Of a DNA stretch of 11,088 nucleotides, positions 1-11,088 are shown piece after piece (position 1 is the stretch's first letter; each line of letters starts with the position of its first letter). A model generated the notes under the pieces. It saw only the letters and a list, made by a program, of their open reading frames with translations. It was not told the origin of the DNA and did no database searches. Made by a program: the position numbers and the translations under genes. The DNA is from a virus (taxonomy: Duplodnaviria; Heunggongvirae; Uroviricota; Caudoviricetes): positions 1-11,088 of IMG/VR virus record IMGVR_UViG_2744054872_000001; one strand, given 5' to 3'.

Positions 1-201
1 CTGATGGAAATGGAAGCCACGCAAGCACCTTAAAATCACCATCATACACTAAATCAGTAAGTTGGCAGCATTACCCAGATACCAGTCCCCCCATATCAAG
101 AACATTGGCTAACGTATAAGCGGCTTTTTGCTGGAATGATGGATCTTGTCCTGATTTAAGCCCAAACGCTCGACGTTGCGCTTCTGTATCATTCCAACCG
201 G

Positions 202-720
202 TTAAGCGAATTCCCAAAAACGCAAATCAACGATCGCTTCTTTGAATTCCGCGTCGTCTTCAGGTGGCAATGCTGCACGGCGCATCTCCAGCATTTCCAT
301 TGCCCAACCATCAAGCGGCACGATACGCCATTGATAAGGTACTCCCTCTACAGGCACCTCAATATCGTCAATGAACGGTTCCACTTCCAGGACCTGGATA
401 TCTTCAGCCAGAGCATTCATATCGCAATCGTAATAATGCTCTTTACCGCAATGTTTACAGGTGTAGGTGAATGTCTCGACCGGTGTTTCACGGGAGCCGG
501 TAAATATCCACCATAACGCGGTAATCCGGTCCTGCGCCGTCCATGTCAGGGGATCATGTTTCGCGGGTTCAGCCAGCAAGGCTTTTAAATACGCCGTTGT
601 CTGTTGTTCTTGTTCCTCCGGTGTTATCGAGTTGAAACGCATCGCATCAGCAATATTTGGCTGACGGAACTGGATCAATTCAGTTGGCCGCGATGGTAGC
701 GGGAAAAGGGGTAAAAGCAT
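202..720 (-). CDS. Hypothetical protein (172 aa) with a Cys cluster (C-x-H-C-G-x7-C-D); last gene of a three-gene operon
   Basis: ATG at 720-718, stop TAA at 204-202; 14 bp after the upstream gene; protein-like composition. Function not recognised. Confidence 0.55.
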   Translation of the reverse strand: MLLPLFPLPSRPTELIQFRQPNIADAMRFNSITPEEQEQQTTAYLKALLAEPAKHDPLTWTAQDRITALWWIFTGSRETPVETFTYTCKHCGKEHYYDCDMNALAEDIQVLEVEPFIDDIEVPVEGVPYQWRIVPLDGWAMEMLEMRRAALPPEDDAEFKEAIVDLRFWEFA

Positions 721-734
721 CCTTGCTCCTTAAT

Positions 735-1346
735 TCAAAGAGAAAAACTAAAGCCCAGAAGGGAAGCCAAAGAACTTGAGGATTGGTTAAACGTGCTGTG
801 CAATGCGAAGGTCATTGGGAATGACTTAAATTCCGTAACCTGATCCCGCGCATAGGTGACATCGCCGGTAGTGACCGGGAATACCGTCATCTCATTTTCC
901 AGTTTGGTTAAGCCGGAAGACAGCAACCGATAAATACGCACATTGAGCAAATATTTAGACGGTATATTCCCGGTACCGTCCGGATTGATCACCCGACTTT
1001 TTGCCGTCTTAAACCAGTCCAAAACGAGGCCATCAACGGTATCCCTGACCATCATTGTTATCTGCCCAGGCGAACGCTCTGTTGGTTGAAGGATATTCCC
1101 TCCGCCGATTTTAATCGTTTCATATTCGATGCTGTAATCGTGGTAGGTAATGTCTTTGGCAAAGAAGTCTGCCCCCTCCAGTCCATCAACTTCGACAGAG
1201 AACTGCCATCCTTGCGCGAACAGCATTTTGTTCATGATGATTGACGTCAGCTTACCAACTTCCCGCTCACCAACGCCGGAGCCAAATAATGTCGTCGTTA
1301 ATGCCGAAGATACATAAGACTTTACTGAAGCAACATTAAGCCCCAT
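735..1346 (-). CDS. Hypothetical protein (203 aa), middle gene of the three-gene operon
   Basis: ATG at 1346-1344 preceded on the minus strand by GAGGGGG; 10 bp after the upstream gene. No family recognised. Confidence 0.55.
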   Translation of the reverse strand: MGLNVASVKSYVSSALTTTLFGSGVGEREVGKLTSIIMNKMLFAQGWQFSVEVDGLEGADFFAKDITYHDYSIEYETIKIGGGNILQPTERSPGQITMMVRDTVDGLVLDWFKTAKSRVINPDGTGNIPSKYLLNVRIYRLLSSGLTKLENEMTVFPVTTGDVTYARDQVTEFKSFPMTFALHSTFNQSSSSLASLLGFSFSL

Positions 1347-1356
1347 ATCAGCCCCC

Positions 1357-1964
<608 letters not shown>

Positions 1965-2053
1965 ATGTCATTTGTCCATTGTGCCAACTGTTATTATGGA
2001 TATCATAATTCATACGAATCGCGCTGCTACAGGATGTATAGCAACCTTAATAA

Positions 2054-3313
2054 TTATTTGAATATATCAGTTATAGTTGGGTAATTATACATCTTAAGCT
2101 TATCTCTAAATTTCATAGAAAATATAGGGTCTACCTTACATCTGTGTAAGAGCTTTGCAATCCTTAGCTCCCTCTCATTCATAATATCTTTGTATTCGCT
2201 ATCAATACTTTCCTGAATTTGCTGATTCTCAACAGGAGACGGTTTAGTAATTTTATCCCATTGATAAGTTGGCTTCGTAGTGTAATTTAAACTATCATCA
2301 TTTTGGAGTAATGCCTCAAGACGAGACTTAGCATTTTCATATAGCATTCTATCTTGGGGCAACATACTTGCAACACGCATTTCCATTTCAATTTCCGATA
2401 CTATCATTTCAAGTTGACGTTTTTCCGTTTCAATAGCTAAAAGAAATGGAAATAGGGCTTCTTGCTTAATCATTTGACAATTCAAATTATTGTTTATGCC
2501 ACTAAGTAATTTTGTAAATGAGAACTTCTTTAAAGGCTGCTGATTTATAACACTCTGTCTAACTGGCATTGTGTAGTTCGGTGTTTTTTCAAGTGTTTTC
2601 TTCACTTGCTCTATAGCAACATTAGGAGTGTAGAAAACAGTCTTTGCTGGAATACGTAGCACCATAAACCCCTCCTTTATTGAATATTCATCACGAATAC
2701 GATCTCGCTCTATTTGTTCTGGGGATGAATGCCATGCTGCACCATCAATTTCTATAATTTGGCGTCCATTTACGACAAAATCAAAACGATAACGCTTATA
2801 GGGCACTTGCATTTCAAGCACTAAGTCAGGAGAAACTAACATTCCAGATTTAGGTTTAAGATTAAACTCTGCAACCATTTTACGAAGAAATGCCTCCTCA
2901 GCCGGAGATTCGCAACCTTTGCAAAATATATCAAGCCAGTTTTCTGCGTCAGCGTCAACAGTTTGCCACCATGCTAACAGTCCACGTCGGTGTCCATATA
3001 ATCGTTCATCTGACGGTTTTGTTAATGGCTTTGTTAACGGTTTAACTAAGGGTTCATTTAACGGCTTTAATAACGGCTTAAATAACGGCTTATTTAACGA
3101 ATTTAATAACGATTTATTTAATGGTTTGATTGACGGTCTATTTGACGACTCAATCGGTGGTTTAGATGATGATTTGTTTTTTTTATCAAAACCTACGATA
3201 GTTATATATGCTACATATAGCATCATGCCTGCAACAGGCCATACACATGGATAAATCACGTAACACAACAGTAATAGAACAATAGTCCCAAAAAATGTTA
3301 ACTTCTTCCGCAT
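2054..3313 (-). CDS. Membrane-anchored DUF559 (Vsr-like / restriction-endonuclease-fold) domain protein, 419 aa: two N-terminal hydrophobic helices, KPLx repeat linker, DUF559-like core, coiled-coil C-terminus
   Basis: N-terminus MRKK + two hydrophobic helices followed by DKKNK; linker KPLF-KPLL-KPLN-EPLV-KPLT-KPLT; core RFDFVVNGRQIIEIDGAAWH...RDRIRDEY...GFMVLRIP matches the DUF559 signature FDF...IE.DG..H...D..RD...G..VLR from memory. About 33% GC. Confidence 0.7.
   Translation of the reverse strand: MRKKLTFFGTIVLLLLCYVIYPCVWPVAGMMLYVAYITIVGFDKKNKSSSKPPIESSNRPSIKPLNKSLLNSLNKPLFKPLLKPLNEPLVKPLTKPLTKPSDERLYGHRRGLLAWWQTVDADAENWLDIFCKGCESPAEEAFLRKMVAEFNLKPKSGMLVSPDLVLEMQVPYKRYRFDFVVNGRQIIEIDGAAWHSSPEQIERDRIRDEYSIKEGFMVLRIPAKTVFYTPNVAIEQVKKTLEKTPNYTMPVRQSVINQQPLKKFSFTKLLSGINNNLNCQMIKQEALFPFLLAIETEKRQLEMIVSEIEMEMRVASMLPQDRMLYENAKSRLEALLQNDDSLNYTTKPTYQWDKITKPSPVENQQIQESIDSEYKDIMNERELRIAKLLHRCKVDPIFSMKFRDKLKMYNYPTITDIFK
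3013..3140. repeat. Imperfect 12-bp tandem repeat (about 9-10 units, consensus near TTWAATAACGGC) encoding the KPLx linker
   Basis: ACGG/ACGA/ATGG recurs at 3013, 3037, 3061, 3073, 3085, 3097, 3109, 3121, 3133, i.e. 12-bp period from 3061 onward; in frame with the 419-aa CDS. Confidence 0.7.
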
Positions 3314-3540
3314 ACCAAACTCTTTGCATCAATAAAGGGGACTGGCTTATATAATCAAATCACATGCCCGAAATAAAAGATGACCAACACCAACGGAAAT
3401 CACACTCTAAACTAATATACATTAACACTTAATATCGCCATCACAATTGATTGATTATGCTAATTTAAAAATGATATTTTTACAGAGAATATACAGCTCT
3501 ACAAGATGACTATTACACCAAAATTTAAAAAAATCATTGG

Positions 3541-3582
3541 CAACCTTGTAGAATTGATATTAACAATCGATTCTACGGGTTG
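3541..3582. promoter_or_regulatory. Palindrome copy B: CAACC-TT-GTAGAAT-N15-ATTCTAC-G-GGTTG; candidate operator for the 419-aa gene and/or weak terminator for the upstream operon
   Basis: Core GTAGAAT 3548-3554 and ATTCTAC 3570-3576 with a 15-nt spacer, identical spacing to copy A; on the minus strand the hairpin is followed by a U-rich tract (AUGAUUUUUUUAAAUUUU). Confidence 0.45.
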
Positions 3583-3628
3583 CCATTTGCTACATAGAGT
3601 GTAATAAGAGAGGATGGTTCAACGGAAA

Positions 3629-4168
3629 TTACCACCAGCTACTGGCTTTTTTCTCCCTTGCTTTACCTTCGCTTTGCAATAAATCCTTACTCCCTGAAGA
3701 GATGTTACGATTTGCATCAGCTTCAGACTGAATCACATCAGTTCTTGCAGCCCTTTCCTTTAGCTCCTGCTCAATGAAATCGTTTTCTCTCTTAACTCGA
3801 GCAGCTTTCGCTTGTAGCTCAAGCTTCATTTTCTCAAGTTCTAATTTACGAAGCTCATCTTCATAAGCCTGATTTCGCTTTTTCTCTGCGGTCAATTCAG
3901 CTTCACGCTTCGCTCTGCGCTCATTTTCCGCCGCTATACGAGCTTTCTCGCGGGCATTTGCAGCTGCCGCAGCCCTCTCTCTTCTTAAACGTTCAGCATT
4001 TTCTTGCTTGCGAATTTGCTCTAGTCTGGCATCCTCCAGCTGCTGTTCTCTTGCTCGACCTTCACTTTCTGCCTGGGCAATAGCAGCTATTTGACTCTGC
4101 AATGAATTAGCAAATACATTGCCTGTATTCAAAGCAGCCAAACATAAATAACAAATAATTTTCTTCAT
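3629..4168 (-). CDS. Secreted (Sec signal peptide) charged coiled-coil protein, 179 aa
   Basis: N-terminus MKKIICYLCLAALNTGNVFA|NS looks like a cleavable signal peptide; the rest is E/R/K/A-rich heptad-like sequence; starts 11 bp after the lipoprotein stop. Confidence 0.7.
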   Translation of the reverse strand: MKKIICYLCLAALNTGNVFANSLQSQIAAIAQAESEGRAREQQLEDARLEQIRKQENAERLRRERAAAAANAREKARIAAENERRAKREAELTAEKKRNQAYEDELRKLELEKMKLELQAKAARVKRENDFIEQELKERAARTDVIQSEADANRNISSGSKDLLQSEGKAREKKASSWW

Positions 4169-4179
4169 ATCTTATTGAG

Positions 4180-4701
4180 TTATTTTTTATCAGGACATGT
4201 AGCATTAGGTTGAATGCGCGTTTCGTTTTCTTTCGTTGAAATCAAAGCCGCGATTCCAGGGGCAAATTGGCAAGCTCTACCAACCTGTGTAGATGTATAG
4301 ACTTTAGTACCTTCCTTGTAAGTAAGAGATACACCTTCAACAATTGATTTATCACTTACCATAGAACCAGCAGCTGCGCCAAGAGCTCCACCGCCAGCAC
4401 CACCAGCAACTGCACCCAAGGTAGAAGTTCCTTTAATATTATATCCAGCAACACTACCAGCTACTGCACCGAGAACAGCACCGAAAGTCTGAGCTGCTTG
4501 TTTATTAGCTGTATTATCAACTTTTACTTTGGCTGGGAGAACAGAGATTATATTTACTACTCTTGTTTCTTGTTTTGAATTAAGTTGGGCTGTGTCGTAC
4601 ACATCTGCCGCATATTCAGCACCATTAGACTGACACCCTGAGAGAAAAATTGCAGAAACAACCATGACGCATAAAGAAGAAATTTTAGCCATTAGAATCA
4701 T
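4180..4701 (-). CDS. SlyB-like outer-membrane lipoprotein with glycine-zipper domain (about 170 aa from ATG 4701; alternative ATG 4692; the ORF-track start at 4752 is probably too long)
   Basis: Lipobox FLSGC after a K-containing n-region; Q at +2; GxxxG zipper AVLGAVAGSVAG...AVAGGAGGGALGAAAGS; architecture resembles SlyB/Pcp family. Confidence 0.7.
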   Translation of the reverse strand: MILMAKISSLCVMVVSAIFLSGCQSNGAEYAADVYDTAQLNSKQETRVVNIISVLPAKVKVDNTANKQAAQTFGAVLGAVAGSVAGYNIKGTSTLGAVAGGAGGGALGAAAGSMVSDKSIVEGVSLTYKEGTKVYTSTQVGRACQFAPGIAALISTKENETRIQPNATCPDKK

Positions 4702-4766
4702 CCCAGAAAAAAAATATAATCCAAGAAAATCTATCACATAAGCCAAATACAAACAAGATTAATCCT

Positions 4767-4815
4767 ATTGATGTATATCAATTATTATAAAAAATACGAT
4801 CTTCATTGCTGAAGC
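4767..4815 (-). promoter_or_regulatory. Candidate promoter for the lipoprotein/coiled-coil operon with an inverted repeat ATTGAT-GTAT-ATCAAT at the predicted start site
   Basis: Minus-strand TATAAT at 4789-4784; weak -35 around 4808-4813; inverted repeat 4767-4782 directly downstream. Sequence inspection only. Confidence 0.3.
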
Positions 4816-4982
4816 TGCGTTATATTAAGTCTAAAAAAATCAACTATCGACATTATATGCTCTGCTAATAATTTACACTTGATTTAGTTGAGTTGGTTTA
4901 ATATTGACACTAACTCACTCTCTAATTATATACAATTTCCAATTTTATATGCGCATATATGGAAACCTATACCAACAGCATG

Positions 4983-5030
4983 TTGCTCTAATAAATTTGT
5001 CTTTTTAAGTCACGAATGCTATCTTTTCGC
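4983..5030 (+). repeat. Conserved upstream box, copy 1 (TTGCTCTAATAAATTT-N-TTTT-TAAGT...GAAT...TTTCG)
   Basis: About 27 of 35 core positions identical to copy 2 at 6644-6692; lies about 300 bp upstream of the 73-aa ORF and first antirepressor gene. Confidence 0.5.
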
Positions 5031-5312
5031 ATCATATTGACCTTTTAATCGTTCAGGCTTATAGTTCCGCCGTCGTAGCAAATTCTGCGACCGGGTTTAG
5101 CAGCCTGAATGATTGTGCGGACAGCCGCAGATATCCGATATTGCGGTATTTTTGTGTCCGTAAAACCGCGTTACGCCCAAATTATGGTGGGACGTGATGG
5201 GGAGGCTTCGGCCTGCTGGTTTCACAATCGCCAGTCTGCTAACCCCGTCACGTCCTGCCACCTGTTTAGCAGCGGGTAGCAGGTTGTTAAACCTGATTGT
5301 GAGGCCGTAACT

Positions 5313-5534
5313 ATGGTTAATGCCAATCCTTACGCACGCCAAGAATTCATCTGGCGTTTCTATTCCTGTAAAAAACACCACTATCACTTCGTCATCGCAG
5401 CAACAGAAGACGAAGCACGCTCTCAATTGCCTGATGGCCCCTGCATTTTTACTGCCCGTTTTTCAACTAACTCGCGCAATTCACTTAGTTACTGGAACCT
5501 CCCCTTCTCTGCCGACGTTCAGGGGGATTTATGA
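5313..5534 (+). CDS. Small hypothetical protein (73 aa), translationally coupled to the downstream antirepressor
   Basis: GAGG 9-12 nt upstream of ATG 5313; stop TGA overlaps the ATG of the next gene (ATGA at 5531-5534); more protein-like than overlapping frames. Confidence 0.4.
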   Translation: MVNANPYARQEFIWRFYSCKKHHYHFVIAATEDEARSQLPDGPCIFTARFSTNSRNSLSYWNLPFSADVQGDL

Positions 5535-6565
5535 AAAAACCTCTCGTCACCCGTAATGAAATAGCCGAAGCGATCGCCCTGCATACAACCTGTATGCCGA
5601 CACGGGAGATCCCCGGCGCAATTGCCAACTATTTCATGATAACCAGACGTTTTTATACCCGAACAGATAAGGCTGTGATCAACAAGCTACTGATAGCCGA
5701 GATCAGGGATTATTTGATTGAACAAGGACGTCTACGTTACGCAACAGTGGCAGCAGAAATGAGAAAGGAGGCACACAGAGTGACCGGTAAAAATTTGAAT
5801 ATTGAAAAACCAGCACCTGTTACGTCAGCTACGCCAACACCAGCCGTGAATGTCATCCCCAACATCGGAGACACAATCGACAGCCAAACATTGTTGAAGA
5901 TGGTCAATGAGGCACGGAAATTATGTAGCGAAAAACCAGTTCGCAATAATGATTTCATTGCCAGAGTTAAGGATGAACTTGAAGGAGAAACCTACGAAAT
6001 TTTCGTAGGTCAAAAAAACGGCGCAGAAATAGATATTATAACAATGACCTACAAACAAGCCCTGCGAGTTGCCGCGCGCGAGTCAAAAGCGGTCCGCCGT
6101 TCGCTGATCGACAAACTGGAAGAATTACAGCAGGCAAACTCCCCTACCCCATCGATCCCCCAGACATTACCAGAAGCCCTACGCCTGGCTGCCGAGTTAG
6201 CAGAACAGAAAATGCAGTTGGAACAACAGCTGGTGGCCGCAGCCCCTAAAGTCGATTTTGCCGACCGGGTATCAGTGGCCAATGGAATCCTGATCGGGAA
6301 CTTTGCAAAGGTCGTTGGACTTAAGCAAAACGCCCTTTTCTCATGGTTGCGCCAGAACGGCATTCTCATGGCTTTTGGTGCGCGCAAAAACGTACCGCGC
6401 CAACAGTACATCAACGCCGGGTATTTCACGGTGAAAGAAGTGGTGTTGGATGATGAAAATGGCTACCAGATACGGCTGACGCCCCAATTAACGGGTAAAG
6501 GCCAGCAGTGGTTAACTCGCAAGCTACTTGATGCTGGTTTGTTAAAACCAGTAGCAATAGGTTAA
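5531..6565 (+). CDS. Phage antirepressor, KilA-C (ANT-type) C-terminal domain, 344 aa
   Basis: C-terminal block LPEALRLAAELAEQK...PKVDFADRV...GILIGNFAKVVGL...LFSWLRQNGIL...RKNVPRQQYINAGYF matches the KilA-C signature and is paralogous to the next gene; SD GGGGGA before ATG. Confidence 0.8.
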   Translation: MKKPLVTRNEIAEAIALHTTCMPTREIPGAIANYFMITRRFYTRTDKAVINKLLIAEIRDYLIEQGRLRYATVAAEMRKEAHRVTGKNLNIEKPAPVTSATPTPAVNVIPNIGDTIDSQTLLKMVNEARKLCSEKPVRNNDFIARVKDELEGETYEIFVGQKNGAEIDIITMTYKQALRVAARESKAVRRSLIDKLEELQQANSPTPSIPQTLPEALRLAAELAEQKMQLEQQLVAAAPKVDFADRVSVANGILIGNFAKVVGLKQNALFSWLRQNGILMAFGARKNVPRQQYINAGYFTVKEVVLDDENGYQIRLTPQLTGKGQQWLTRKLLDAGLLKPVAIG

Positions 6566-6576
6566 CAAAAGAAAAA

Positions 6577-6603
6577 ACCTGCCAGCAAACTGACAGGTTT
6601 CTG
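6577..6603 (+). terminator. Weak hairpin (8 of 9 bp stem, CAAA loop) after antirepressor 1; A-run upstream and short T-run downstream
   Basis: ACCUGCCAG-CAAA-CUGACAGGU with one C-A mismatch; only UUU follows on the plus strand. Confidence 0.3.
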
Positions 6604-6643
6604 AGCAGATCGACCAACCCGATCTGGATCGAGTTAGAAAAAT

Positions 6644-6692
6644 TTGCTCTAATAAATTTCGTTTTCTAAGTGCAAAGAATCACCATTTCGAG
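6644..6692 (+). repeat. Conserved upstream box, copy 2, about 40 bp before antirepressor 2; followed by inverted repeat AATCACCA-N8-TGGTGATT (6678-6701)
   Basis: Direct repeat of 4983-5030; its position relative to the 6729 start suggests promoter or operator. Confidence 0.5.
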
Positions 6693-6728
6693 CTGGTGAT
6701 TGAAGGTTGATGCAAATTTGGAGAAAAA

Positions 6729-7529
6729 ATGCAACAAACATTCAATGCGGATATGAATATATCAAACCTTCATCAAAATGTCGATCCTTCAACCACTCTT
6801 CCCGTTATTTGTGGTGTTGAAATTACGACCGACCGCGCTGGCCGTTACAACCTTAATGCTCTACACAGAGCGAGCGGACTCGGTGCCCATAAAGCGCCAG
6901 CTCAATGGCTAAGAACGCTGTCAGCTAAACAGCTCATCGAAGAGCTTGAAAAAGAAACTATGCAGAATTGCATAGTTTCGTTCGAAGGCCGTGGCGGCGG
7001 CACTTTTGCCCATGAATTGCTCGCAGTGGAGTACGCTGGTTGGATTTCTCCCGCGTTTCGGCTGAAGGTAAACCAGACATTTATCGACTATCGAGCTGGA
7101 AGATTACAACCTGCTATTCCGCAGAGTCTCCCTGAAGCTCTCCGTTTGGCTGCCGAACTGGCAGAGCAAAAGCAACGGCTGGAGCAAAAAATGCTTATGG
7201 ATGCACCTAAAGTCGAATTCGCCGAACGCGTTGCTACCGCCAGCGGGGTTCTAATCGGCAACTATGCCAAAGTGCTCGGCCTGGGCCAAAACTATCTCTT
7301 CACCTGGTTGCGTGATAACGGAATTCTGATCGCAACCGGTGAACGCAGGAACGTCCCCAAACAAGAATACATATCCCGTGGATATTTCACCCTTAAAGAA
7401 ACCGTGATCGATACAAGCAATGGAAGCAGGATTTCTTTCACGACTCGTATAACCGGCAAAGGTCAGCAGTGGCTGATGAAGCGATTGCTTGATGCTGGTG
7501 TGCTGGTACCTGTCGCGGCAACGCGCTAA
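6729..7529 (+). CDS. Phage antirepressor with KilA-N N-terminal domain and KilA-C C-terminal domain, 266 aa
   Basis: N-terminal YNLNALHRASGLG...GTFAHELLAVEYAGWISPAFRLKV resembles KilA-N; C-terminal block paralogous to 6130-6565; SD GGAG before ATG. Confidence 0.8.
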   Translation: MQQTFNADMNISNLHQNVDPSTTLPVICGVEITTDRAGRYNLNALHRASGLGAHKAPAQWLRTLSAKQLIEELEKETMQNCIVSFEGRGGGTFAHELLAVEYAGWISPAFRLKVNQTFIDYRAGRLQPAIPQSLPEALRLAAELAEQKQRLEQKMLMDAPKVEFAERVATASGVLIGNYAKVLGLGQNYLFTWLRDNGILIATGERRNVPKQEYISRGYFTLKETVIDTSNGSRISFTTRITGKGQQWLMKRLLDAGVLVPVAATR

Positions 7530-7558
7530 CAGACGTAGTAAGAACCACCAGCATTGTA

Positions 7559-8059
7559 ATGCTGGCTAAAGTCACTTTCCTGAGCTGTATAACGATGAGC
7601 GATTTTACTTTTTCTGGCTATGAATTGGCCTGCTTTGTAACACACTCCGGTCTATCCCGTAGCGCCGGGCATATCCTGTCGCAATGTGCAAATCTCGCGG
7701 CAACAACCAGTGAATACTTCATTCACAAGCCTCACCGCCTGATCGCGGCAGAAACTGGTTATAGCCAATCAACCGTCGTTCGTGCATTCCGTGAAGCTGT
7801 AAACAAAGGAATCCTGTCTGTAGAGATTGTTATCGGCGATCACCGTGAACGTCGCGCTAACCTGTACCGGTTTACACCATCCTTTTTGGCCTTCGCACAA
7901 CAAGCCAAAAATGCGCTGACTGAAAGCAAATTAAAGATCTCTTCAGCGGCAACCAAGGTTAAAGCTGTTATCGCTAAGACATTGGCTTTATTTAATTTTA
8001 TATCCACACCCCATGTCAAAATGATACCCCCTCCCCCTGTCAGGATGACGTGGCAATAA
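7559..8059 (+). CDS. Putative helix-turn-helix DNA-binding protein (166 aa; start may instead be ATG 7595)
   Basis: HTH-like segment AETGYSQSTVVRAFREAVNKGIL; ATG 7559 sits inside hairpin 7548-7565, so the start is uncertain. Confidence 0.4.
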   Translation: MLAKVTFLSCITMSDFTFSGYELACFVTHSGLSRSAGHILSQCANLAATTSEYFIHKPHRLIAAETGYSQSTVVRAFREAVNKGILSVEIVIGDHRERRANLYRFTPSFLAFAQQAKNALTESKLKISSAATKVKAVIAKTLALFNFISTPHVKMIPPPPVRMTWQ

Positions 8060-8403
8060 AGAATAAGAAGTCACAAGTTAAAAAAACAAAAAGATCAGTT
8101 TCCGGCGGTGCCGGAACGTCCAGACTCAAAAAATTGACTTCATGGATCGCTGAGGCAAAAGCAAAGGCTGACAATCTGCGGTTATCCCAAAAACGCGCTC
8201 AAAAACATGAGTTCAAGCAGAAAGTAGAGGCGGCTGCGCGGAAATATGCTTACCTGAAGAACAAGCGTTCGCCTGATATTGGCGGGATATCAAACTTCGA
8301 TAACCTACCGCATTGCATGACGGTAAACGAAGCTCTTAATGCGGTTTTAGCCAAAAATAAAGATAACGATCAATGGGGTATACCGGCGGGATTCAGAGGG
8401 TGA
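8050..8403 (+). CDS. Basic lysine-rich hypothetical protein (117 aa), GTG start overlapping the upstream stop
   Basis: ORF begins with GTG at 8050 and overlaps the previous ORF by 10 nt; K/R-rich; no family recognised. Confidence 0.3.
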   Translation: MAIKNKKSQVKKTKRSVSGGAGTSRLKKLTSWIAEAKAKADNLRLSQKRAQKHEFKQKVEAAARKYAYLKNKRSPDIGGISNFDNLPHCMTVNEALNAVLAKNKDNDQWGIPAGFRG

Positions 8404-8553
8404 TAGATTGCTCTAATCTGGAGTCACCTGGCGTTTTCAGTATGGATTTTCTTTGGCGCGGTCTGGCCATTAGGGATCATGTTTGCTGCAACGTTTCTTC
8501 TGATGTGGGTATTCACCCTTCCAGGTGATTTCTATAGAAAAAAAGCCAGACAT

Positions 8554-8562
8554 TGATACAAT
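8554..8562 (+). promoter_or_regulatory. Candidate hok mRNA promoter: extended -10 TGaTACAAT, predicted start near G8569/8570
   Basis: TG at 8554-8555 plus TACAAT 8557-8562; predicted start coincides with the 5' element GGGUGCUUGAGG (8569-8580), which is complementary to the 3' element at 10289-10301. Confidence 0.4.
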
Positions 8563-8631
8563 CGCTGCGGGTGCTTGAGGCTATCTGCTTCAGGCATTAC
8601 CCGAAAAGCAGATAGAAGAAAGCCCCAGATA

Positions 8632-8690
8632 ACATTACGCGTCCTGCAAGACGCTTAACATTAATCTGAGGCAATATCTATGCTTAGCAT
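8632..8690 (-). ncRNA. sok: Sok-like antisense RNA (approximate ends) complementary to the mok SD and start region
   Basis: Minus-strand TTGACC (8724-8719), 18-bp spacer, weak -10 TAATCT (8700-8695); predicted transcript covers mok SD 8668-8671 and ATG 8680-8682; ends in hairpin GCGUC-UUGCAG-GACGC (8656-8641). Position inferred from hok/sok family architecture. Confidence 0.5.
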
Positions 8691-8886
8691 ACGTAGATTA
8701 GCCTCTTACCGACCAAAAGGTCAAGGAGAAGCAGGCTATGAAGCAGCAAAAAGCGATGTTAATCGCTCTGATCGTCATCTGTTTAACCGTCATTGTGACG
8801 GCACTGGTAACGAGGAAAGACCTCTGCGAGGTACGAATCCGAACCGGCCAGACGGAGGTCACTGTCTTCACAGCCTACGAATCTGA
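8680..8886 (+). CDS. mok: Mok-like overlapping reading frame (68 aa) that overlaps hok in another frame
   Basis: ATG 8680 with GAGG 8 nt upstream; covers hok in a different frame and ends 7 nt before the hok stop, as expected for mok. Confidence 0.6.
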   Translation: MLSIRRLASYRPKGQGEAGYEAAKSDVNRSDRHLFNRHCDGTGNEERPLRGTNPNRPDGGHCLHSLRI

Positions 8887-8893
8887 AAGGTAA
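8738..8893 (+). CDS. hok: Hok/Gef-family type I membrane toxin, 51 aa: MKQQKAMLIALIVICLTVIVTALVTRKDLCEVRIRTGQTEVTVFTAYESER
   Basis: Own translation of 8738-8893; AAGGAG 10 nt upstream; single TM helix plus the conserved RKDLCEV...R.G...V.F.AYE motif; close to HokC/HokD as recalled, exact paralog not assigned. Confidence 0.9.
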   Translation: MKQQKAMLIALIVICLTVIVTALVTRKDLCEVRIRTGQTEVTVFTAYESER

Positions 8894-8915
8894 GAGACCT
8901 GGCGGGGAGAGATCC

Positions 8916-10253
8916 CATAAGCGCTAACTTAAGGGTTGAACCATCTGAAGAATGCGACGCCTCGGTGCCTCGTTAAGACGATGCCTCGCGTTCTTCAATT
9001 GCGTTTTGTAGGCTGTCAGGGATACTGTCCCACGAATGGCCACCTGTAAGCTCCAGATGACCATTTTTGTTATTCTCCACAACGAGTTAGTTCTTCTTTT
9101 CGGATCCGGCACTTCTGGGGGGGAAATCCAGCGATGGCTGGATTATGTCGTCAATTAAAAATGCGGCGAGTAGATTAGCAAATATCCACGCTTTCGCGAG
9201 TTCAGGTTCCTTTGCACGCAAAGCATCCAGGTGCAGCAAACTTTTGAGCCGCTTAAAAGCCAGTTCAATTTGCCATCGCAGACGGTAACAATCAGCCACT
9301 TGCTCTGCTGAATATTCATCTTCCGGTAATGATGTTAGCAATAGCACATGGCCCGCTGCTTCCAGCGTTTCCGCCTGAACTACTCGTCCTTTTCGACGAT
9401 TCTCGCTGAGCAGTCGGGTTTTACTGATTAATGCTTTTTCGGGAGGAAGTGATACGGCAATGAGACGTGCCGGAAAGGGAGCTCCGGCTTTTTTATTACC
9501 TGAATTGCCTATCATTACAGTGGTTTCACCGTTCTTACCGCAATCCAGCCCGCGCAGAAAACCCATCATGTCAAAGCGCATTCCTTCTGCAGTTAACCAG
9601 CGCAATCCTCGCCAGTGAACCCGGACGATATAATCAGCTTCTCCAAAAGCAAGTGAGCGGATACATTCGGGACGCGAACCGAATCCCCGGTCAGCAATGC
9701 GTATCTCGTCTGCCGTTTGCGCAAATCGGTCCAGCCGTTCAGCGTCTCTGCTGTCGGTTAGCTCAAAATCAGTGAACTGACAGGTATGAGGATCATATCC
9801 CATATGTAGTCGCCATTCAGCGCTGCCGCCCCCGGGCGCACTGATTGCTGTTCCATCGACAAGACGCAATCTCTTTCCGCTTGTACAACCCGTAACTGCG
9901 GCGCGTACAGCAAGTGTTTGTGCGGCAAGTATGCCAAACCAGTCGGCGGCATTCCGCAGCCGCTTCAGGAGAGCCACGTCAGATAATGTTGCAACGTCAT
10001 GGAGCTGAGCCCATGCAGTGACTTCACGTAATGACATCCCCCCGGGCCGTAAGCCAGCCCCAGACGTAGCAGAGTTGCAGCATCACGAATTTCGCGGCGG
10101 CGGGTTAGAGCCCCGGCATTACGTGCCGAAGTATCCAGTTCTTCGGGCTTACCAATATGGGCCAGAATTGCTGACCAGTTATCGTGAGAGTAATTCATCG
10201 GCACGTTAAATCATATCAGGCGTAATACCACAACCCTTAAGTTAGCGCTTATG
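8916..10253 (-). mobile_element. IS186 (IS4 family), complete 1338-bp copy with terminal inverted repeats and 10-bp target duplication GGAGAGATCC
   Basis: Left end CATAAGCGCTAACTTAAGGGTTG (8916-8938) and right end CAACCCTTAAGTTAGCGCTTATG (10231-10253) are reverse complements; direct repeats GGAGAGATCC at 8906-8915 and 10254-10263; encoded protein matches IS186 InsL as recalled. Confidence 0.9.
9087..10198 (-). pseudogene. insL: IS186 transposase InsL, reading frame broken by a 1-nt deficit in a G-run (plus-strand C6 at 10038-10043)
   Basis: N-terminal 54 aa MNYSHDNWSAILAHIGKPEELDTSARNAGALTRRREIRDAATLLRLGLAYGPGG (from ATG 10198) are in one frame and MSLREVTAWAQLHD... (9087-10037) in the +1 frame; one extra G would restore a 370-aa ORF. 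Could be a true mutation or a homopolymer sequencing error. Confidence 0.8.
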
Positions 10254-10311
10254 GGAGAGATCCCCGCCACTCTTCGTGTGTCAGGTATCCTCAATGCACC
10301 CTTTCCTCTCC

Positions 10312-10338
10312 AAATAAAAAAGCTCCCGAAGGAGCTTT
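10312..10338 (-). terminator. Rho-independent terminator (AGCUCC-UUCG-GGAGCU + UUUUUUAUUU on the minus strand); likely bidirectional between the hok 3' end and the convergent minus-strand gene
   Basis: Perfect 6-bp stem 10321-10336 with tetraloop; strong U-tract on the minus strand, weaker on the plus strand. Confidence 0.6.
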
Positions 10339-10357
10339 AAAATACAAGGGATGACTC

Positions 10358-10708
10358 TTAATCCCACTCAATCCAGTTGTAGACGATACGAAGTGACGGG
10401 CGCACAGCGGCAGTCACATCTTCGGTACTAAAGTCGATTGCATCACTGTAGATTTTGCAGTCCAACATTTCAATTGTTGTAGCAGCTTTTGTCACAGCGT
10501 TAACCCCGGAAGCTTTGGATTCAGGGGTAGCAGCCATCGTGATATCAACATAGTCCTTCGCCGCAATGCGATCCTTAATGAACTGAAGAATATCGCCTTC
10601 GATAGTCTCCACGCACTGGACCTGGATTTCCCCAGAGTTTCGAATTGCTCCGTGCTGGTTGAACTTCACACCATTCGGACCATAGTCCTCCACATCCTCT
10701 CGAGTCAT
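10358..10708 (-). CDS. Hypothetical protein (116 aa from ATG 10708); the frame stays open upstream into the IS3-family end, so this may be a 5'-truncated remnant
   Basis: Stop at 10358-10360 followed by the terminator; no SD before ATG 10708; the frame is open from 10709 to the IS boundary at 10785. Confidence 0.4.
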   Translation of the reverse strand: MTREDVEDYGPNGVKFNQHGAIRNSGEIQVQCVETIEGDILQFIKDRIAAKDYVDITMAATPESKASGVNAVTKAATTIEMLDCKIYSDAIDFSTEDVTAAVRPSLRIVYNWIEWD

Positions 10709-10784
10709 TTCAGGGATTTGCGACGTGCGAACCAGTACGCTGATATCTTCATGGCCTGCAAAAGTGAGCTGGAATTCAGAAGAT

Positions 10785-11088
10785 TGAACCGCCCCGGAAA
10801 TCCTGGAGACTAAACTCCCTGAGAAAGAGGTAAACAGGATGACTAAAAATACTCGTTTTTCCCCCGAAGTCCGTCAGCGGGCGATTCGTATGGTTCTGGA
10901 AAGTCAGGATGAATATGACTCACAGTGGGCGGCAATTTGTTCCATTGCCCCAAAGATTGGCTGTACGCCGGAGACTCTGCGTGTCTGGGTTCGCCAGCAT
11001 GAGCGGGATACCGGGGGCGGTGATGGTGGGCTCACCAGCGCTGAACGTCAGCGTCTGAAAGAGCTGGAACGTGAAAATCGTGAACTGC
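10785..11088 (+). mobile_element. Left end of an IS3-family element (IS629/IS1203/IS3411-like), running off the window
   Basis: Terminal TGAACCGCCCCGG... at 10785 followed 53 bp later by an OrfA start; protein [64 protein letters not shown]...ELERENREL matches IS3-family OrfA as recalled. Confidence 0.8.
10838..11088 (+). CDS. IS3-family transposase OrfA (HTH + leucine zipper), 3'-partial at window end
   Basis: ATG 10838 with AAGAGG 8 nt upstream; open to the end of the window. Confidence 0.85.

Follow-up and report, generated by a model that had tools for sequence, protein, structure and literature searches.

Why should a nuclease gene carried by a P1-like phage-plasmid contain a regular 12-bp tandem array, and what would such an array do for the encoded protein? 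We addressed this question for a stretch of 11,088 nucleotides (nt) from a virus of the Caudoviricetes (positions 1 to 11,088 of the IMG/VR record IMGVR_UViG_2744054872_000001; hereafter the window, meaning the whole stretch). The gene lies on its minus strand and encodes a 419-amino-acid (aa) protein with a DUF559 domain. We consider it likely that an in-frame minisatellite has lengthened the connector between a membrane anchor and the nuclease, and that the product serves as the leash of a membrane-confined nuclease. The parts of the gene are as follows.

2054..3313, minus strand: coding sequence (CDS) of the 419-aa membrane-anchored protein with a DUF559/Vsr-like endonuclease domain, identical to WP_077248989.1 ('DUF559 domain-containing protein')
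3176..3310, minus strand: N-terminal membrane anchor, aa 2-46 (AlphaFold2 helices 2-20 and 24-46; 39-aa hydrophobic segment)
2981..3175, minus strand: predicted disordered tether, aa 47-111 (low model confidence; composition)
3005..3160, minus strand: full in-register array, 13 tetrapeptide units PPIE...PSDE (unit table; register common to all alleles)
3017..3124, minus strand: array core, 9 well-conserved units PLNK...PLTK, the site of all natural whole-unit indels
2591..2980, minus strand: nuclease domain, aa 112-241, Vsr-like 'EDxHD' fold (invariant D178, E188, D190, H195 and D204)
2090..2518, minus strand: C-terminal helical domain, aa 266-408 (AlphaFold2 helices 266-315, 319-338, 364-394 and 396-408)

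An earlier note on this DNA had described an in-frame 12-bp repeat encoding a KPLx linker, with about seven regular units plus degenerate ones. The repeat is indeed found at that place. It is read on the minus strand of the open reading frame (ORF) at 2054..3313, where the sequence ...SIKPLNKSLLNSLNKPLFKPLLKPLNEPLVKPLTKPLTKPSDE... contains the quoted KPLx string. Thirteen in-register 12-nt units run from 3160 down to 3005 (aa 52-103), in the order PPIE, SSNR, PSIK, PLNK, SLLN, SLNK, PLFK, PLLK, PLNE, PLVK, PLTK, PLTK and PSDE. The nine core units follow a clear (P/S)-L-x-(K/N/E) pattern, with the DNA form (C/T)C(A/C/G)-TTA-nnn-(AAr/AAT/GAA), and seven units are true (K/E)PLx, in agreement with the earlier count. 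The units are degenerate, with a unit-to-unit identity of about 65-70%, and the longest exact internal repeat of the array is 12 bp.

Tandem Repeats Finder reported periods of 12, 24 and 36 at 3022-3121, with scores of 64-113. The lag-12 nucleotide identity, calculated over 120 nt at a time, peaked at 0.69 at position 3015, against a mean of 0.276 (standard deviation 0.061) over the whole window and a maximum of 0.48 elsewhere; the signal of the array is thus far above chance. Autocorrelation had its maxima at lags of 12, 24 and 36 nt and its minimum (0.14) at lag 6. A higher-order 36-bp unit, which had the top Tandem Repeats Finder score, was ruled out because identity hardly differs between these three main lags (0.65-0.68).

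The reading frame of the array is the true one, since the Pfam domains DUF559 and MTES_1575 lie in the same ORF, an identical CDS is annotated in RefSeq, and full-length homologues occur in many Proteobacteria. The claim that the repeat is in frame with a DUF559 protein therefore stands, and the possibility that it lies outside the true frame falls away. A plus-strand ORF that crosses the array (2919-3254, 111 aa, TTG start) has no support and was rejected as an artefact of a repeat free of stop codons; as we read it, its product would consist of NG(F/L)x repeats. Queried by itself against a set of 5.8 billion proteins, the linker gave 0 matches at E<=0.01 and only 19 candidates that shared words with it, a result that tells us little except that KPLx words are rare.

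To describe the protein around the array, we used an AlphaFold2 model built from a 45-sequence alignment, with a mean predicted local distance difference test score (pLDDT) of 79.8. The model places the linker between a membrane anchor and a nuclease-like domain, as the earlier note had proposed. In the anchor, the turn YPCVWP joins two hydrophobic helices, flanked by MRKK and DKKNK (+2/+2); a hydrophobic N-terminus with an internal Pro is shared by 88% of family members. Structure prediction returned a pLDDT below 50 for aa 47-111, leaving this segment unfolded. This tether of 65 aa contains, among others, 11 P, 12 L, 10 K and 4 R, has a net charge of +10, and consists for the most part of the array.

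The nuclease domain is a confident alpha/beta structure, with pLDDT above 90. Over aa 163-241 it scored 29.1 bits with PF04480 (DUF559; cut-off 20.6) and 37.6 bits with PF18741 (MTES_1575), just below the cut-off of 38.2. Residues D178, E188, D190, G191, H195 and D204 are invariant in the 45-sequence alignment, and the N-terminal helix of the domain carries the family motif W..FCxGCESPAEE. The domain has the Vsr-like fold of the DUF559/EDxHD superfamily and, with its catalytic motifs intact, is apparently an active nuclease. A structural match was sought for the C-terminal domain and none was found; a sequence search of the PDB with the protein gave nothing meaningful, and the NCBIfam profiles assigned it to no family.

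The long tether is peculiar to the P1-plasmid lineage. A protein search returned 64 homologues, full-length or partial, from Proteobacteria including Pectobacterium, Rhizobium, Mesorhizobium and Pseudomonas, and in a 50%-identity library 243 clusters matched at E<=1e-10 and 52 at E<=1e-30. The alignments start at about residue 115-125 of the query and residue 55-65 of the target. Measured in 187 sequences, the hydrophobic segment ends a median of 34 aa (interquartile range 32-38) before the conserved CESPAEE motif, and distances of 72-96 aa occur in the P1-plasmid alleles only. A typical family connector has ~12 residues, for example EDLKTPSIIPAPPIPTWRD, compared with ~65 in the P1-plasmid protein. 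The nearest sister clade (56% identity), which is chromosomal in Escherichia between cysE and trmL, has the connector ...KNKPSNKQPNESPLPPLAWWQ, with a faint period of four already present. From these sequence comparisons, the KPLx array grew from a short Pro-rich connector inside the P1-plasmid lineage. Four-residue duplications seem to arise readily in this connector, and not in one lineage alone, because the sister versions of E. marmotae (P0096/P0098) have independently duplicated KPSS (KPSS-KPSS) within it.

Beyond these close relatives, many matches of the wider family share the nuclease part only and have other C-termini, and some members have neither a hydrophobic N-terminus nor a signal peptide. 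An exact contig look-up for P0021 and P0058 returned 0 contigs. In the E. coli chromosome CP057686.1 the sister gene is a single-gene insertion (L018 7001-8119). In Mesorhizobium (L009 7483-11308) a Lamassu-like operon adjoins a family member; it includes LmuB (E 2e-28), LmuC (E 6e-5) and an unassigned 412-aa protein, and an unannotated 1519-aa gene follows.

Comparison of isolates and homologues revealed that copy number is polymorphic, with four natural alleles.

13 units: 419 aa, class A (this window); 15 complete E. coli plasmids, commonest variant on 272 contigs
14 units: 423 aa; 4 contigs, two of them NCBI assemblies; perfect duplication of CCGTTATTAAAG
11 units: 410 aa, class B, which also lacks S341 outside the array; 7 complete plasmids plus one IS91-disrupted copy
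8 units: 398 aa; 8 contigs

The alleles differ by exact multiples of 12 bp within the array, and all remain in frame and in one register; linker length thus changes without a break of the frame, as had been suggested, and a copy number fixed among homologues is not what we found. The 13-unit allele also occurs on a class-B-like E67/P72 haplotype (L004, L005), so at least three independent whole-unit events are needed to explain the alleles. Indel breakpoints fall at AAG|CC(G/A)TTA junctions, the pattern expected of slipped misalignment or unequal exchange between units, which would then be the probable source of the alleles. When further alleles were sought by anchored patterns, IMG/VR yielded 0 loci in one scan and 1 in another, and metagenomes yielded 1; only known lengths were among them.

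The earlier suggestion that the repeat is prone to expansion and contraction holds in part. Whole-unit polymorphism is real, but the array is not very unstable: in complete E. coli plasmids, the modal length is present in 15/15 class-A and 7/7 intact class-B genes, and the rare length variants are found on a few contigs, against hundreds with the modal forms. Because length is uniform within each class and the longest exact repeat is 12 bp, the array is a slowly changing minisatellite and not a hypermutable switch. In NZ_CP142045.1 (L003 3155-5802) an IS91-family transposase cuts the class-B gene in two: a 235-aa N-terminal fragment keeps the anchor, linker and nuclease, and the C-terminal part forms an ORF of its own.

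Between classes A and B the anchor is identical, and linker and nuclease have a synonymous divergence (dS) of 0.011-0.025, whereas the C-terminal domain has a dS of 0.099, 26 non-synonymous changes and a ratio of non-synonymous to synonymous divergence (dN/dS) of 0.65. Since divergence is concentrated in the C-terminal domain (2054-2575 of the window) and the rest is nearly identical, the gene is mosaic, with this domain as its variable part. Perhaps recombination has swapped a specificity module.

How might the lengthened connector work? In the sequence of events that we favour, an in-frame 12-bp minisatellite would have arisen in the P1-plasmid lineage and taken the connector from ~12 to ~65 residues, making it disordered and strongly basic, with (K/E)-P-L-x units. 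Whole units would be gained and lost by replication slippage or unequal recombination, the frame being kept and only the length and charge of the tether changing. A cytoplasmic tether would then act as a leash that sets the reach of the nuclease from the inner membrane; by standard per-residue lengths, 65 fully extended residues could span roughly 200 Å, compared with about 40 Å for the usual 12. The membrane-confined nuclease would attack incoming foreign DNA while being kept off the resident genome.

A precedent for such a protein is SNIPE, whose GIY-YIG nuclease is anchored in the membrane; experiments have shown that it cleaves phage DNA as this is being injected, and it turns toxic once off the membrane. 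Like SNIPE, the DUF559 protein is a single polypeptide with an N-terminal membrane anchor (here a predicted hairpin at aa 2-46), a nuclease and an extra domain; in both, the N-terminal region differs greatly among homologues in length and sequence, and both are encoded by stand-alone genes in variable or defence loci. They differ in fold, GIY-YIG in SNIPE and Vsr/DUF559 EDxHD here, and in domain order, as the DUF559 protein runs from anchor to nuclease and ends in the extra domain. The Pfam matches of the DUF559 protein include neither DUF4041 nor GIY-YIG, so it is not a SNIPE homologue.

By analogy with SNIPE, and given the superimmunity locus in which the gene resides, its cargo-like base composition and the stand-alone occurrences of the family, a membrane-confined exclusion or defence nuclease is our best guess at its role, held at a little under an even chance. 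Stand-alone family genes were found beside Lamassu, beside HsdS, Fic and resolvase genes, on a TrwC conjugative element and as a single-gene insertion. A more detailed proposal would be an undescribed single-gene superinfection-exclusion or anti-phage system that resembles SNIPE in action but is made of different parts. In it, a hairpin would hold the EDxHD nuclease at the inner membrane, the variable C-terminal domain would serve for recognition, and a KPLx leash, ~five-fold longer than usual, would vary between 8 and 14 units, thereby adjusting how far the nuclease reaches, how it captures DNA or how defence is balanced against self-damage. We regard this proposal as unlikely.

Several observations weigh against the leash and its suggested role. 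A connector of ~12 residues serves most of the family, so a long tether is not needed for basic activity, and the long tether may be selectively neutral. The evidence from defence islands comprises about seven loci. PADLOC gave only weak matches of the protein, to the nuclease domains of PDC-S37 and Hhe, and since these are weak and confined to nuclease domains, the protein belongs to no catalogued defence system. Furthermore, literature on DUF559, MTES_1575 or Vsr in connection with membranes or anti-phage activity contained no description of this family.

Other explanations of the array were weighed on the same data. Four length alleles in nature and a gene placed in a locus of the arms-race type could point to a contingency locus, that is, a hypermutable repeat that switches the protein or quickly diversifies it within populations. 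However, a 12-bp unit cannot switch the frame on and off, the degenerate units offer no exact repeat beyond 12 bp, and the modal length is kept throughout the 15 class-A and 7 intact class-B genes, variants being rare; this reading is largely refuted, and we give it next to no weight. The array might also act as DNA, through protein-binding sites (iterons) or as a regulatory or recombination element inside the coding region. The P1 plasmid uses iterons elsewhere, and 9-13 regularly spaced, near-identical 12-mers in an AT-rich region of an iteron-using plasmid would suit such a role, yet the variation between units is concentrated in the free x codon and, for the P and K codons, in third positions where changes are synonymous. 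Indeed, the P, L and K codons vary mostly synonymously (CCG/CCA/CCC and AAG/AAA, with TTA invariant), and a crude between-unit ratio of non-synonymous to synonymous change (pN/pS) is 0.24 for these codons against 1.8 for the x codon, values that are indicative only, as unit pairs are non-independent, and that lend the leash correspondingly less support. Synonymous change at P, L and K beside a free x codon argues for selection on the peptide pattern rather than on a DNA motif. The array is also embedded in a conserved ORF whose homologues in other bacteria do not have it, Rfam matched nothing at the array, promoter and terminator scans did no better than on shuffled sequence, and units spaced 12 bp apart do not keep phase with the DNA helical repeat. 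An action at the DNA level is therefore exceedingly improbable.

Two further alternatives concern the peptide. The earlier note had compared the linker with the Pro-rich spacer of TonB-type proteins. Part of the likeness stands, as in both proteins an N-terminal anchor is followed directly by a non-globular segment rich in Pro and Lys and then by a functional domain, and in both the length of this segment is thought to set reach. But TonB has X-Pro dipeptides, (EP)n followed by (KP)n, in a periplasmic spacer, and a single-span anchor that works with ExbBD, whereas the DUF559 protein has Pro at every fourth residue, a predicted two-helix hairpin anchor and a tether that is probably cytoplasmic; no TonB_C (PF03544) or TonB_N profile matched it in Pfam even at E<=1. 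We thus see a loose analogy only. If it were taken literally, a single N-in/C-out anchor would put the nuclease in the periplasm, with the repeat as a semi-rigid rod across it, and the nuclease would degrade periplasmic DNA when neighbouring envelope proteins block injection. When superinfecting T4 is excluded, its DNA is broken down in the periplasm, and the sim-locus neighbours here are envelope proteins (DUF5384, a membrane protein and, in P7, Upf50.0/50.5 with signal peptides). In remote homologues, a hydrophobic stretch of ~30 aa between an N-flank that is positive and a C-flank that is slightly acidic also fits a single-span N-in/C-out anchor and a periplasmic nuclease, and so counts against the cytoplasmic leash.

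Other features favour a cytoplasmic location. In the window protein, the 39-aa hydrophobic stretch is split by YPCVWP, as a hairpin would be, and both of its flanks are basic; the sister clade has an Arg in the anchor turn (LPRS). Export is disfavoured by the strongly basic character of the residues just behind the anchor (DKKNKSSSK; +10 overall). Several homologues without anchor or signal peptide must be cytoplasmic, and to our knowledge all characterised nucleases of the Vsr/DUF559 fold are. Together with the absence of a TonB domain and a period of four residues instead of two, these features suggest that tether and nuclease are probably cytoplasmic, with both ends of the hairpin inside, and make a periplasmic spacer improbable. 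In a second alternative, the KPLx array would be no passive spacer but a polycationic disordered arm that binds DNA non-specifically, capturing it for the nuclease, or that binds the anionic inner leaflet and holds the nuclease against the membrane. The charge of +10, a Lys at every fourth residue beside Pro, and K, P and L positions that are conserved between units while x is free are in line with this, as is SNIPE, in which a positively charged surface beside the nuclease promotes DNA binding. The closest repeat analogue is the KPAA array of AlgP/PhaF of Pseudomonas (histone H1-like tails), which likewise consists of tandem K-P-x-x from 12-bp units and is Lys/Pro-rich, disordered and variable in copy number; in vitro, DNA is bound by the KPAA peptides of AlgP, whose repeat number differs among clinical isolates (PMC9239181). 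AlgP differs in having about 40 Ala-rich units (KPAA/KPVA) as the C-terminal tail of a soluble nucleoid or granule protein, whereas the DUF559 protein has 8-14 Leu-rich KPL(N/F/L/V/T) units, 9-13 of them in the present array, between anchor and nuclease. The linker-alone search detected no sequence relation to AlgP/PhaF-type repeats and no related repeat proteins, and other family members without a basic arm retain the nuclease and C-terminal domains. We regard a DNA- or membrane-binding arm as a minority possibility, and a flexible leash remains the preferred reading.

Two other systems resemble the leash in part. The tandem repeats (aaTRs) of Borgs are in-frame repeats that create disordered regions and are enriched in membrane proteins (PMC9879509). 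Like the present array, they are extrachromosomal, have a unit divisible by three and add a new disordered region to an existing protein that its homologues do not have (PMC9879509); they differ in being mostly perfect and very recent, whereas the DUF559 array is degenerate and stable within allele classes. ZipA of E. coli has a cytoplasmic, Pro-rich, unstructured leash from an N-terminal membrane anchor to a globular domain. Its P/Q-rich tether differs in being neither a regular tandem repeat nor basic, and ZipA is functionally unrelated.

Taken alone, the repeat is one more in-frame minisatellite of an ordinary kind that makes a disordered Pro/Lys-rich linker. Its value lies in the experimental handle that it gives on an uncharacterised, widespread family of membrane-anchored Vsr-like nucleases, and this family is of higher interest than the repeat. 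If membrane confinement does separate incoming from resident DNA, nature would have supplied a tether series from ~12 residues to 8, 11, 13 and 14 units, and this allelic series could test leash length against protection and self-toxicity. Discrimination of self from non-self by location would then have evolved more than once, with different nuclease folds.

The genomic setting of the gene was examined with PHROG and Rfam searches and with the RefSeq annotation of NZ_CP032890.1. Megablast showed that the window (11 kb) comes from a P1-like phage-plasmid, with 96-99% identity over the flanks to P1, P7, RCS47, SJ46 and similar elements; positions 1900-5100 are 100% identical to IncY plasmids such as NZ_CP032890.1. 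The genes and RNAs around the DUF559 gene are the following.

202-720, minus strand: pmgB (PHROG)
735-1346, minus strand: tub (PHROG)
1357-1923, minus strand: pmgC (PHROG)
2054-3313, minus strand: DUF559 gene, 419 aa (ORF list, Pfam, RefSeq)
3629-4168, minus strand: DUF5384 protein gene, sim-locus cargo (NZ_CP032890.1 annotation; PHROG 1094 and 1277 cover this gene and the next)
4180-4752, minus strand: membrane-protein gene, sim-locus cargo (NZ_CP032890.1 annotation; PHROG 1094 and 1277)
5059-5111: a1/b1 targets of the c4 antisense RNA (Rfam)
5180-5265: c4 antisense RNA (Rfam)

The icd, ant and kilA genes lie downstream of the c4 region (PHROG, NZ_CP032890.1 annotation). In P1, the superimmunity genes simABC are annotated between pmgC and c4; in the window, this sim slot holds three unrelated minus-strand genes (DUF559, DUF5384 and membrane protein), and in phage P7 the equivalent position is occupied by upf50.0/upf50.5, annotated with signal peptides. 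The pmgC-c4 region is one of eight stretches that vary strongly among P1-like phage-plasmids (PMC9603915). The DUF559 gene has a GC content of 33-38%, compared with 46-52% for the P1 backbone, which indicates acquired cargo. The gene is thus accessory low-GC cargo of the variable sim (superimmunity) locus. A 315-bp non-coding AT-rich gap (3314-3628, ~33% GC) separates it from the upstream DUF5384 gene. Since some class-B plasmids have the DUF559 gene without its DUF5384 and membrane-protein neighbours, it probably forms a self-contained module that has its own promoter. Scanning 1900-5100 for promoters and terminators gave 15 sites against 11.1 +/- 3.8 in shuffles, with no convincing site, and we therefore make no claim about operon or promoter from these scans.

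The window showed further irregularities outside the sim locus. The PmgB-like ORF (202-720, minus strand) has 172 aa only and aligns to positions 1-171 of a 276-position profile; in other P1-like plasmids the counterpart is a 293-aa protein followed by sit (also compared: L001 1424-2121). Just past the left end of the window, NZ_CP032890.1 carries an IS1 transposase and an 'anti-phage deoxyguanosine triphosphatase' gene. Because of the short PmgB ORF and these two genes, the element may be a defective phage-plasmid with extra defence cargo.

The repL gene (7559-8403, plus strand) is apparently split into overlapping ORFs at 7559-8059 (166 aa) and 8050-8403 (117 aa), which match positions 1-154 and 166-291 of the same profile, phrog_2418. 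The junction comes directly past a C5-T-C5 run at about 8027-8040, and NZ_CP032890.1 lists no CDS at this position. The split reflects a frameshift in this lytic-replication gene, or else an error made in sequencing the homopolymer. Another tandem repeat, a 23-bp unit present twice at 9575-9621 (79% match, score 59; Tandem Repeats Finder), lies inside the minus-strand ORF 9087-10037, which matches PHROG 4555, of unknown function. Downstream of repL there is a hok/sok type I toxin-antitoxin module (8569-8893, plus strand), with an Rfam match to sok at 8569-8743 (114 bits) and a hokD-like ORF of 51 aa at 8738-8893.

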